From a virus (taxonomy: Duplodnaviria; Heunggongvirae; Uroviricota; Caudoviricetes): a stretch of 13,677 bases of DNA. The stretch is taken from positions 1-13,677 of IMG/VR virus record IMGVR_UViG_2703718850_000012; one strand, written 5' to 3'. A program made the position numbers. Positions 9,001-13,677 of this stretch are shown piece by piece. Each line of letters begins with the position of its first letter. Positions within the stretch are counted from its first letter, which is position 1.

Positions 9001-12000
9001 AGTAGTTCAAGCGGGGAACATAACCACGTCTCAGGCCGGATAATTTCGCCTGACTGCTTATCCACTTTGGGCGTTACCCAGAAAACACCATCGGCGCGGC
9101 TTTCAACGCGGGGCTTTAATTCATCATCGCCATGGTTTTCTGTGATTTTTTTCTTTAAGGGCAACACCAGACTTTCCCCACGCTCGTATTCGTCTTTCAG
9201 TCGGGCAAGCTGTGGTGTCCAGTCCTCCAGTAGTTCGCCGTTCTCGTCACAAAAACTGACTTCCTTAACACCAGCTACTGCGAGCAGGGTTTCAATCTGT
9301 AGCGCCTGTTTGCCATCCAGCTTTCCGGCACGTCTGACCATGACGCGTAACCGGCCATCATCCACAATACGCAGGTTTTCCAGATTACCCAGGTCACGCC
9401 GTCCGATATAAACGGGCGGTATTTTGTCGCCGCGCTTTCCGGCTTCTCCACCCTGCCTGTAATGTTCTGCGTGGCTGTATGCGTCATCCCCCACAAAAAT
9501 TACTGCTTCCTCACCTTTATCTTTCGGCAATAGTTTTACGTTCGGTGCCAGTTTCATTTTTTACCCCTGAATCCGTTAAGCATTTTTCTTATGGCCTGAA
9601 TATTTACCCGTGCCTTCTCTTTGCTGGTGGGCTGGTTACGCGGCGCAGTCTGTACCAGGGAAAAATCACGCCGGAACTGATAAACAGGCATCACGCAGTC
9701 ATAGCCGTACCCATCACGGCGGTAAGTAACGCACCGTCCCGCCACGTGTTTAATCGTTACTGTGCCGCCGTAGTTATCCCGGAAAATATCGCCGGGGCGG
9801 ATTTCAGGCCGAGGGAGGCCGCTGGCAGTAAAGCCAGAATTTTTCTGTTTCATGGTTTTTATTCTCCGGTGTGATGCGCTTTATTATTCTCGTGAATTGC
9901 CATCACCGTATTTAATTCGTTAATTACTGGCGTTAATAATGTGTGCACGGCAGAAAACATCATGGGATATGATTCATCGCCATTTTCCGGCACTTCCATT
10001 AACTTAAGTAATAATGCCTCCATTTCCTTTGCGCGGATTAATGCATTCTCAGAATGAATAAGAACATCAAAAGGTATTTTATGCATCACACAGTTTCTCC
10101 CTGATTCTTTTAGTGTCCTCATTGAGGATGTCTGTAGCTTTTGTCAGTGAGTTTTTGGTAATTATTTTTATTGTTTTAAATTTTCTTTTGTCGTACTCCG
10201 ACTGTGATTTCCTCTCCATGATCTCTACCATGCAATTTATATCCACAAGCGCATGTATCAGTACTTTCAATGCTTCGCCTGCTGCGTCCGGCGTGTTTTT
10301 ATTGCACATGGCGCACCTCCTGACGAATACGGGCGGCGAATACCATCACGCAGCCATCAGGAGATTGCTGGCGGGCTTCCTGTTCGCTGGTGGCCTCGAT
10401 GTGAATCACGCGCGGTTGTGCCGTGCTCAGGGCGATAAAACGCCAGATGTATTTATTCAGGTTGTGCGAGTCCCGCCCTTGCGGGTGTGTGGTATGATTT
10501 AACATAGCTACCTCGATACTTCTGCTATCGTTGGTGGTTAGAAGCCCCGTTACTGCTCCAACAGTGCGGGGTTTCGTCGTTTCTGTGCCTTGCATCAATA
10601 AGGTGTAAGACACAATGTAAAATAAAAGTGTCTTACACGTCAACCCTTCAAAATAATTTTTTTTCGTGTATATTGTCTTACACCAAAAACATAAGGAGTT
10701 AGACATGGCAACAGGTCCAAAGAATGCAAAATCACAATCTGTAACTGCACGTATTGCCCATGAAATTATTGAAGGCATGGAAAAAGTGAAAGAAGAAGGC
10801 GAAAGTACAGGACAGTTTATAAGCGCAGCCATGCGTGGCGAGATCAAACGCCGCCAGCGCCGCCAGGCCAAAGAATCAGAATAAAAACAACCTGCGCCGT
10901 GGTGTGAGGAACTACGGCACATTGCTTTACAGGACAGCACCATGAATGATAACGAGTTAATAAAAACATCATCACCAATAAGAAAGAAACGGCGCAAAAA
11001 TATAGCGCATGAGTCTGAATCAGACAGATTCGCACCATGTGCTTTTGCTCTTGAGAAATTCCTAAAAGAGTACAGGAAAACGCGCCCATTGCAGGTATGG
11101 CAACGTAACGAACAAAAAGGTTGATGTATGACCAGAAAGCAGACAGATAACAAACCATTGCTACCAGAGAATAAATCAGCGGGATTTTTACCGGAAAAAG
11201 TGCTACATGAGCTAAAATTCCGCCAGCGTAAAAAATCCAAAGAAACAGACAAAGAATAACTTATGCACCAAATACTATACTGGCTCGGATCTCTGTTTGT
11301 ATTTGCATTTCTCATGAAATATTGCATTAGCAATGAACCTGCCGACAATGAAAGTACATGCGGGAGTGCTGAAAAAGATATTCCACTTCTCGTATATGAA
11401 AATGAAAGCCCTGTGCACCGCAATTGAGCGAAATTTAATGAATTCACTCTTTGCCCACCAGCCGCAAATGTGGCATTGTTGGCAATGCTCATGCGTTGGG
11501 GATAACGTGTAGCTTGTGTCGAATGGCCACCGTAGCAGGTGGCCTTTGTTTTGCCTGTTATCCGGCAATTGTGGCGCTTCGTCACACGGTTGATATAATT
11601 CCCCTGCACTGATCCATTTTTTTCGCAGCAGGTTAATTGTTCACAAGGGCGCTCCGGCAACGGGGCGCTTTTTGTTATGTTCATTGCGTTACACCTCACA
11701 CCATTACGCAGCCGTTCCGCGCGCTTCTTCCTCGCGTTCTTTCAACCAGGCCAGCACCTCATCTTCATACCAGCCAACACGGCGCAGACCGATTTTGAAG
11801 CCTTTCGGGAATTTTCCGGCGTTGATCATGTCCTGTAGCGAACTGTCTGCCTTGATGCGCAGAATATTTTTTACTTCCTGACGGGTAAGAATTTTTCTGA
11901 TTACTTCCATCGTGTTTTACCTCGTTAATCCGGCGTATTCCGGTGATAAATACGGTAAAGCAGGGCAGGGCGGGAAAAACAGTACTCACCGTTTTAAAAC

Positions 12001-13677
12001 GGTACTCACTGTTTTTTATCTCATTGATTACGCTTTCTTTTTGCAAAAAAATAGCGACCGCAAGGGGCCGCTATTGTGATTACCGTTTCCACTTCTTAGG
12101 TCGCCCACCACATTTAAGGCTGGTGGGCCTCAGCACCTTGTCGATGCTTTCAGCCAGATTTTTCGATGCGCCACGCGAGCGTAAAAAACTGACTACCTCG
12201 TGTTTTGTGGGGGCTGTTGATTTGTCTTCCGGATCGTATGTTGACCAGAATTCACGATTTGCCATTAACGCCAGTTGCAGCCCTTCACCGCAGACATTGA
12301 ATGATTTTTCGTGCCAGACCATTTCAATAAATCTCGATTTCTCATGAGTCGGGTTTTTCCTTGTCTGTTGAGGAGATAGGCGATTATACGATGGTTTAGC
12401 ATGGTTTGCACTGGTTGTACTGGTTTTTTGTACAGTTACACCGCACGGATACCCCTTTTACCACTGGCTATGGTCACTCCGGTTGCTGCGGCTTCCACAA
12501 ATTCACCCCACCAGCGCATAAGTACTACGCGTTTTTCCAGGTAGTTACTTCGGTTATATGCCCGCCTTACCTCGTTCGTGTCCACGTGTGCGAGCGCGGC
12601 CTCGATTACGTCCGGCTCGAATCCTTCCTCGTTCGCTGCTGTGCTGAATATGGCGCGTAATCCGTGAGACACCAGCACACCAGCGTAACCCATCCGGCGC
12701 AATGCGGCGTTAGCGGTCTGGCTGCTCATTGGCAGCATCGGGTTTTTAAGGCTGGGAAAAACGTGTTCCCTGTGTGCGCTGATTGGCTTCATGGTTTCCA
12801 GTACAGCCATAGCCTGACCACAAAGGGGGATCACATGGTCACGGCGCATCTTCATGCGTCCGGCTGGAATCGTCCAGGTTTCGGCATCGAGGTTTATTTC
12901 TTCCCAGCGTGTGGCGGCTGCTTCGGCGGGGCGTGCTACGGTCAGTAGCTGCCACTCAATCAGCAATCTGGTTTGCCGTTCTATGCTGGCGACCGATAAA
13001 TCGTGCATTAGCTGCGGTAGCTGTTCCGGTCGGATGGTTGGCATGTGCTTTTTGGTGGGGGTAGGGAATGCCTTACGGACGTTCGCGGCGGTGTTGATGT
13101 CAATCAGACCACTGTTGGCAGCAAAATCCATCACCTCATTGATGCGCTGTAAAACGCGTTTCAGGGTTTCCAGGTTGCCACGCGCCTTAATGGGGGTGAG
13201 TATCTCAACAAAGCGGCGAGCGGTGAGGGTATCTATTGGCGTTTTTCCGATGTACGGGAATACGTATTTTTCCATGGATCGCCAGATATCCTTAATCGTG
13301 TTGTAAGCGAGATTCTGGCCTTTTTTCATCTCGTACCAGTCAGAGGCAACTTTTTCGAACGTGTTGCCCTTTTTCCGGCTCTCTGCTTCACGTTTCCGGC
13401 GTTCGTGGTCCTGTGGGTCAACTCCCTTCGCTATAAGTCCCCTGTATTCGTTTCGTCGCTCTCTGGCTTCTGACAGAGAAACATCATTCAGCGGACCAAG
13501 ACTAACGATGGTTCGTTTTTTGTCAGTGGGTCGGTAATACGTAAAGCGCCAGATTTTTGATCCGGAGGGCTTCACCAGAAGAAACAATCCTCCGCCATCC
13601 TGCAGGGTGTATTCTTTTTCTCCTGGTCGTGCATTTTTGATCTCCGTGATGGTTAGTGGAGTGGTTTTTCGTGCCAT

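Follow-up and report, generated by a model that had tools for sequence, protein, structure and literature searches.

Tandem 20-bp dyads upstream of alpA in an EcCICFT073-type chromosomal island as candidate operator-type sites for an island-encoded regulator

In Gram-negative phage-inducible chromosomal islands (PICIs), it is at the transcription of alpA that induction, excision, replication and transfer are decided. We describe here a pair of near-palindromic 20-bp units (‘dyads’) that lie just upstream of alpA in a 13,677-nt stretch of DNA (positions 1 to 13,677 of the IMG/VR record IMGVR_UViG_2703718850_000012, a virus of the class Caudoviricetes; ‘the window’ hereafter), which is a PICI of the EcCICFT073 type. 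Several described systems lend themselves to comparison. In phage lambda, OR1-OR2 are tandem dyad operators for the repressor, and in phage Mu the Mor protein acts at Pm, where a dyad activator site serves a promoter that has no −35 element. In satellite P4, the late promoter PLL lies upstream of vis, a gene of the AlpA family, and is activated by P2 Ogr or P4 delta through a dyad near −55, as well as being autoregulated by Vis.

The prototype EcCICFT073 shares its island architecture and gene order with the window, including a short alpA gene that sits behind int and has its own promoter. In that island AlpA is an activator of its own promoter, induction and transfer need alpA, and over-expression of AlpA alone leads to excision and replication; helper phages lambda and phi80 induce alpA, independently of the SOS response, through an inducer described as ‘under study’ (PMC6092414). 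The literature that we searched yielded no mapped binding site in any PICI alpA promoter. EcCICFT073 also has a repeat array at the equivalent place, some 40-90 nt upstream of the alpA start codon, together with a second array of the same core just after int (six copies of ACAAC), analogous to the boxes found at 12383-12430 of the window. It differs in its AlpA allele, in the form of its repeats, which are direct and have a 10-bp period (ACAAC / GACACAA) rather than being dyads, and in that no equivalent of the small open reading frame (ORF) described below, ORF80, stands between int and alpA.

An initial annotation of the window had drawn attention to a perfect 16-bp palindrome, ACCGTTTTAAAACGGT, with a copy of GTACTCAC on either side (11982-11989 and 12002-12009), and had placed it about 80 bp upstream of alpA and just past the terminator of the int-proximal ORF. 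On all of these points we agree: coordinates and sequence match, each copy of GTACTCAC shares 2 nt with the palindrome, the edge of the palindrome lies 77 nt from the alpA start, and a canonical terminator precedes the palindrome by 46 nt on the minus strand, the strand that carries all of the genes across this region (int, ORF80, terminator, dyad repeats and alpA; coordinates in Table 1). As an account of structure, a palindrome with flanking repeats is nonetheless incomplete. A repeat search resolves the 40 bp from 11976 to 12015 (plus strand, AAAACAGTACTCACCGTTTTAAAACGGTACTCACTGTTTT) into a tandem direct repeat of two 20-nt units that are identical at 18 of 20 positions, each of them itself near-palindromic, AAAACRGT-N4-ACYGTTTT, with 8-bp arms around a 4-bp centre and arms that are complementary at seven of eight positions in both units. 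The reported palindrome is the seam between them; the junction ACCGTTTT/AAAACGGT is palindromic because two near-palindromic units abut, and the GTACTCAC ‘repeats’ are simply the unit centres plus two arm bases.

This distinction matters for the statistics. A perfect palindrome of at least 16 bp turned up in 21% of 500 dinucleotide-preserving shuffles of the window, so the palindrome by itself proves little, whereas none of 200 shuffles contained two 20-mers in tandem that match at 18 or more positions. Half-sites of the form AAAACRGT/ACYGTTTT are expected by chance 0.8 times in the whole 13.7 kb; there are five, of which four fall within the 40 bp, the sole extra one being at position 6410 in the region of the SSB stop codon. 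The tandem structure, unlike the lone palindrome, is thus beyond chance. The dyad has no second copy at other promoters of the island or in its att-proximal DNA, in a search that covered the window, L051 (a relative of 26.8 kb) and 43 IMG/VR elements that are complete.

Conservation was followed through some 90 related elements, drawn from genomes of E. coli, from viral contigs and from metagenomes. Upstream regions of alpA came from eight E. coli genomes, from 43 IMG/VR elements recovered through the conserved core block of the promoter, from a few more IMG/VR elements recovered through the dyad pattern, and from contigs with more distant AlpA variants. The resulting 58 loci represent 26 unique 187-nt sequences and, with the loci recovered by the dyad-pattern scan added, 17 unique variants of the 40-nt element; a metagenome set of 34 contigs was used in addition to these 58 loci. 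Across the 17 variants the promoter-proximal unit reads AAAACGGT-NNNN-ACTGTTTT with almost no exception, with variation at three of the four positions of the centre (GAGT, GGGT, GGGA, AGGT, TGGT), and the metagenome loci contributed no new arm variants. The distal unit is more variable; its centres also include GTAT, TCTA, TATA, GCCC, GCCA and GGAT, one of its arms is degenerate in L096, and in two elements (L061 and L089) it has gone by an exact 20-bp deletion, which leaves the proximal unit only and therefore no palindrome. The junction palindrome is perfect in subfamily 1 alone, is imperfect throughout a whole subfamily (ACCGTTTAAAAACGGT), and is broken in L047 and L096.

Degeneration of the distal unit in some elements, and its loss from two, mean that the palindrome is not the conserved entity; the GTACTCAC copies, for their part, hold the most variable positions. 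What is conserved, as judged from these alignments, is a 20-bp dyad, AAAACGGT-N4-ACTGTTTT, usually duplicated and located beside the alpA promoter. The 17 variants together display a two-fold symmetric site with conserved arms and a free centre, as a dyad operator for a dimeric regulator does. The proximal arms are invariant while the intergenic DNA on their flanks has diverged by more than 20% or has been replaced, and the terminator behaves in the opposite way, with the same structure and an unrelated sequence in two subfamilies. Other, lineage-specific dyads occupy the same place in the relatives L196, L006, L007 and L011 (in L196, three copies of AAAGGG-N5-CCCTTT within the intergenic region), and such lineage-specific dyads at an equivalent place argue for a cognate, co-evolving binder over a host factor.

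Two of the variants have a form of their own. In L047 and L096 the distal unit resembles an inverted, not a direct, copy of the proximal one (centres GCCC and GCCA, compared with GGGT), such that the 40 bp of L047 become an almost perfect palindrome; this suggests template switching or hairpin-mediated conversion between units.

A quite different possibility is that the element is neutral, namely a 20-bp tandem duplication, generated by slippage, of an AT-rich promoter-upstream or UP-element-like segment, in which the palindrome is an accident. The copy number is one or two, the two copies have changed together (GAGT to GGGT), which slippage or gene conversion predicts, the palindrome alone is not significant in the shuffles, and the A/T tracts would be located at the positions of UP-element subsites. 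Saying this, a neutral duplication does not readily account for proximal arms that stay invariant beside diverged or replaced flanks, for a fixed spacing to the promoter core, or for analogous dyads at the same place in unrelated lineages; we consider it very improbable.

On balance we favour, by a modest measure, a reading in which a regulator of alpA that the island itself encodes, be it AlpA or the ORF80 product, binds the dyads as operator-type sites. Conservation, position and analogy all point this way. An island-encoded, sequence-specific protein would bind both dyads and set the level of alpA transcription, with the promoter-proximal unit acting as the primary site and the distal unit, two helical turns away, as an auxiliary and probably cooperative one; the level of alpA would then determine induction and excision of the island, because AlpA switches such islands on. 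The proposal in the initial annotation of a regulator site controlling alpA fits well with the conservation, spacing, uniqueness and island type, provided that it is transferred from the palindrome to the 20-bp dyad. Likenesses to lambda OR1-OR2 and to Mu Pm include the two-fold symmetry, the conserved arms with free centres, a spacing of integral helical turns, the better conservation of the promoter-proximal site, and a core promoter that has no −35; in contrast to both, the sites in the window abut without a spacer, the junction is itself symmetric, and the position relative to the transcription start is a predicted one. We would thus place the feature, provisionally, as an uncharacterised member of a familiar class, that of promoter-proximal operators.

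Several observations weigh against operator-type sites. Match counts do not single out the axis of symmetry, in that unit-centred and junction-centred axes score equally (about 6.9 of 8 each). The 40 bp also fold well as RNA (−17.4 kcal/mol, z = −4.1), as do all of the two-unit variants (−15 to −27 kcal/mol, the latter in L047), and in some of them the distal centre can pair with the proximal one (GCCC with GGGT, TCTA with GGGA). Taken together with an inner stem that was flagged by a terminator scan, and that is flanked by A6 and T5, these folds could indicate that the imperfect 40-bp palindrome works as structure: a second, bidirectional terminator or insulator hairpin, which would shield alpA from int/ORF80 read-through. 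However, a strong canonical terminator is already present 35 nt upstream of the dyads, the stems are AT-rich, the U-run (5 U) pairs with the A-run, and variants with a single unit fold at only −8.8 kcal/mol. Moreover, it is the sequence of the arms that is conserved between subfamilies, where the true terminator keeps structure and not sequence, and the commonest variants have parallel, non-complementary centres (GAGT/GAGT, GGGT/GGGT) rather than compensatory ones. A structural role of this kind appears quite improbable to us.

A promoter scan of 11500-12600 returned no sigma-70 consensus promoter. The best candidate for the alpA −10 is probably TATTTA, within the block TTTACCGTATTT, which is kept in all family members and belongs to a longer conserved arrangement, TTTACCGTATTTRTCACCGGAAYACRCCGGATT-AACGAGG-N9-ATG, that follows a gap of variable sequence; −10-like hexamers are found at a similar place in other genera. 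The gap sequence is swapped between subfamilies (CCCGCCCTGCCCTG, ACCCATATCCGATG, CTGCTTTCGTCCTG) while its length, and with it the distance from the dyad to the TTTACCGTATTT block, stays constant at 15-16 nt. The hexamer located 17-18 bp upstream of the putative −10 is TCCCGC or TACCCA, neither of which is −35-like, and the lack of both a sigma-70 consensus and a −35-like hexamer fits a factor-dependent promoter with its sites just upstream. With TATTTA taken as the −10, the units would be centred at about −45.5 and −65.5, with their junction at about −55.5, which would be the geometry of an activator-dependent promoter; alternatively, an operator could cover the UP-element-like A/T tracts.

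The resemblance to P4 PLL is evident in that a satellite gene of the AlpA family comes first behind what would be a factor-dependent promoter, with autoregulation of the gene and with a dyad near −55 if the −10 is correctly assigned. The differences are equally plain: the Ogr/delta pattern TGT-N12-ACA is absent from both strands of 11900-12080, sid, psu and delta are missing from the island, and its Nu1-like packaging gene suggests a lambdoid rather than a P2-like helper. Patterns for LexA, CRP, lambda CII, IHF, Fis-like sites and DnaA gave no match in 11900-12080, and Rfam gave none at gathering thresholds across the whole window.

Position upstream of a −35-less core would suit an activator, and one that is encoded by the helper phage (or a host protein modified by it) might bind the dyads and recruit RNA polymerase to produce the first burst of AlpA. 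Helper phages do induce EcCICFT073 alpA (PMC6092414), and in EcCIMP1 an alpA reporter is still induced by the helper in a delta-alpA mutant (PMC11773190), which reveals an AlpA-independent input at the promoter; the lineage-specific nature of the sites is also what helper specificity would lead one to expect. Against this, the region has no BLAST match among 50,697 phage genomes (INPHARED), and the single-unit pattern outside islands in IMG/VR amounts, among the matches listed, to scattered single copies in unrelated low-GC contigs, probably due to chance. Boxes with the AAAAC core recur, by contrast, at the island’s own ORF80 promoter, which suggests an island-internal circuit. We view a helper-encoded activator at the dyads as distinctly unlikely.

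If the dyads are operators for an island protein, two candidates present themselves. The first is AlpA, through positive autoregulation, which we put forward tentatively. The AlphaFold2 model of AlpA (pLDDT 81) finds its best structural matches in the excisionase RdfS, BldC, the GIsul2 excisionase and Xis. In favour of AlpA, autoactivation is documented in the prototype, and the arrays of common core in EcCICFT073, upstream of alpA and just after int, have a parallel here, as the window likewise has AAAAC-core boxes directly after int. A number of points weigh against AlpA. Members of the RdfS/BldC/Xis fold class typically occupy direct repeats spaced by one helical turn, in a head-to-tail manner, and not dyads (PMC11963761, PMC7498355). 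The dyads have a 20-bp period and half-sites of alternating orientation, and do not form the three or more direct repeats, one per turn, of an excisionase-type array; arrays of that type lie elsewhere, at 12391-12430 in the window and in EcCICFT073. In a neighbouring sub-clade, the AlpA proteins of L008 and L011 differ by one amino acid and have unrelated upstream sequences, and an AlpA that is 71% identical (L099) keeps the dyads where one that is 73% identical (L105) has different repeats. A described AlpA binding element of P. aeruginosa was dropped from the comparison, that AlpA being a larger, Q-like antiterminator that is unrelated to the 68-amino-acid winged-helix protein (PMC9371919).

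Between the dyads and the AlpA start is a further repeat, CCGGAAT-acg-CCGGATT (Table 1), that could also form a 4-bp CCGG/CCGG hairpin. Its wider form, CCGGAWT-N3-YCGGWTT, is co-conserved with the AlpA clade across genera, unlike the dyads, and YCGGW-N5-YCGGW is conserved in the Pantoea, Edwardsiella, Pectobacterium, Brenneria and Erwinia relatives of this AlpA clade.

The second candidate, somewhat doubtful in our estimation, is ORF80, most simply as a repressor. ORF80 is a free-standing copy of a domain of about 60 amino acids that forms the C-terminal part of many proteins of 200-300 amino acids (pattern FWSTYDPxD..TAP.K..V..L...G.S.N.A..ID.ILRP..GRPKK); it is represented by 390 cluster representatives and has no match to a Pfam, NCBIfam or PHROG family. 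ORF80 is present together with the dyads in every case. Furthermore, all six of the other contexts retrieved (L005/L105, L196, L198, L199, L200 and L202) have a gene for this domain immediately upstream of one of the alpA type, which has the look of a conserved, undescribed gene pair. The probable ORF80 promoter is marked by four direct repeats that start right after the int stop codon, abut a perfect TATAAT and share the AAAAC core with the dyad half-site (boxes AAAACCAGT and AAAACCGTC in relatives, CAAACAGTA and AAAACGGCG in L099); with a perfect TATAAT of its own, ORF80 may be made in the resting island, which would fit a repressor.

On the other side, ORF80 has no recognised DNA-binding domain and a fold search gave no clear match; EcCICFT073 and EcCIMP1 do without ORF80 and are still helper-inducible; and L006, L007 and L011, with other accessory genes, have dyads nonetheless. 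These points count against ORF80 as the binder. CP4-57 yfjH was set aside as a possible relative of ORF80, the gene being on the opposite strand, a judgement made without comparison of the sequences.

In its fullest form, the ORF80 scheme would have a small DNA-binding repressor occupying both dyads and its own promoter in the resting island, with alpA silenced until the repressor is displaced by a protein of the helper phage; we speculate on this knowing it to be unlikely as a whole. Were it so, ORF80 would be the Gram-negative counterpart of Stl, the master repressor of the Staphylococcus aureus pathogenicity islands (SaPIs), and its domain would mark out a class of gatekeepers, both widespread and undescribed, for mobile islands under AlpA control. 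The likeness to the stl-str operator, if ORF80 binds, is that of a resting-state island protein that holds an induction gene off until a helper protein acts; the differences are that ORF80 is unrelated to Stl in sequence and fold, and runs in the same direction as its target, not divergently. The current view is that Gram-negative PICIs have no Stl-like repressor (PMC6092414).

Within the family AlpA, ORF80 and the dyads are completely linked and the arms never vary; with all three co-inherited and the arms invariant, no covariation test could separate the candidates. A conserved 20-bp dyad at a fixed distance from the promoter core does provide a concrete experimental target, for which the natural single-unit and broken-junction variants serve as ready controls; AAAAGCCT is an example of a mutated form of the proximal arm AAAACGGT.

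Table 1. Features of the alpA region and of the rest of the island, in coordinates of the window
Feature	Coordinates	Strand	Remarks
Promoter-proximal dyad unit, 20 bp	11976..11995	-	alpA-sense strand: AAAACGGT GAGT ACTGTTTT
Distal dyad unit, 20 bp	11996..12015	-	alpA-sense strand: AAAACAGT GAGT ACCGTTTT
Reported 16-bp palindrome, seam of the two units	11988..12003	.	junction ACCGTTTT/AAAACGGT
Gap, proximal unit to putative −10	11953..11975	-	15-16 nt variable + TTTACCG
Putative −10 TATTTA, within conserved block TTTACCGTATTT	11947..11952	-	block kept in all family members
CCGGAAT-acg-CCGGATT, 10-bp-spaced direct repeat	11927..11943	-	unique in window; predicted transcript start
alpA, 68-amino-acid winged-helix protein, excisionase (recombination directionality factor, RDF) class	11704..11910	-	Pfam Phage_AlpA, E = 4.5e-8
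Intrinsic terminator of int-proximal ORF	12050..12075	-	10-bp stem + T7
ORF80, 80 codons, small protein, candidate binder	12080..12322	-	basic GRPKKWKR tail at end
Probable ORF80 promoter: TATAAT (12388..12383) + 4 direct repeats AAAC(C)A(G/T)	12383..12430	-	10-bp period
int, tyrosine integrase	12436-13677	-	Arm-DNA-bind_3, Phage_int_M, Phage_integrase; P4-type arm-binding, central, catalytic domains
DUF927 primase-helicase	7425-9557		domain match
PAAR-domain protein, cargo	1125-1616	+	
PAAR-pyocin_S-colicin/pyocin DNase toxin, cargo	1613-3304	+	
Colicin/pyocin immunity protein, cargo	3306-3554	+	

The assignment of the window to the EcCICFT073 type follows its gene order, which is that of the prototype (int, alpA, convergent YlcI-like genes, Icd-like, DUF4222, primase, SSB, PerC), with synteny to CFT073 coordinates 1377930-1388654; ProQ/FinO and a Nu1-like small terminase are also encoded downstream. 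A relative with 99.8% identity across the int-alpA region has its int directly at tRNA-Pro, next to yejM. Of 5,426 complete E. coli genomes, 99 carry the 801-bp int-alpA region. An induction switch at alpA is relevant, too, to the spread of the PAAR-colicin-type DNase toxin/immunity cargo; in place of the PAAR cargo, the 99.8%-identical relative has genes for capsid and head decoration at that end.

At least 12 iterons (GTTGTCCCA / TGGGACGAC, in both orientations) lie at 7106-7404, directly downstream of the DUF927 primase gene, and, with an AT-rich stretch, occupy 7084-7404, where the island probably has its origin of replication. The notion that the dyads themselves are origin iterons was rejected, as the iteron cluster is located there and is unrelated to them in sequence.

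Downstream of alpA, an ‘ORF466’ (466 codons, minus strand, 10299-11699) was discarded as a mechanical ORF, RefSeq relatives having annotated genes on the plus strand over the same interval; these are small (a YlcI/YnfO family gene and two hypothetical ones) and convergent on alpA. A GC-rich hairpin at 11645-11672, with A and T runs on either side, looks like a shared bidirectional terminator. Further along, three copies of GTGTAAGACAC are found at 10603-10684 (two inverted copies that match at 11 of 11 positions across a 14-nt gap, and one more), between a YlcI/YnfO-like gene (10705-10884, plus strand) and the divergent Icd-like gene that heads the replication operon; they form a second operator set, with a sequence unrelated to that of the alpA dyads. 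Shortly upstream of the Icd-like gene, at about 10540-10570, is a CCCCG...CGGGG hairpin.

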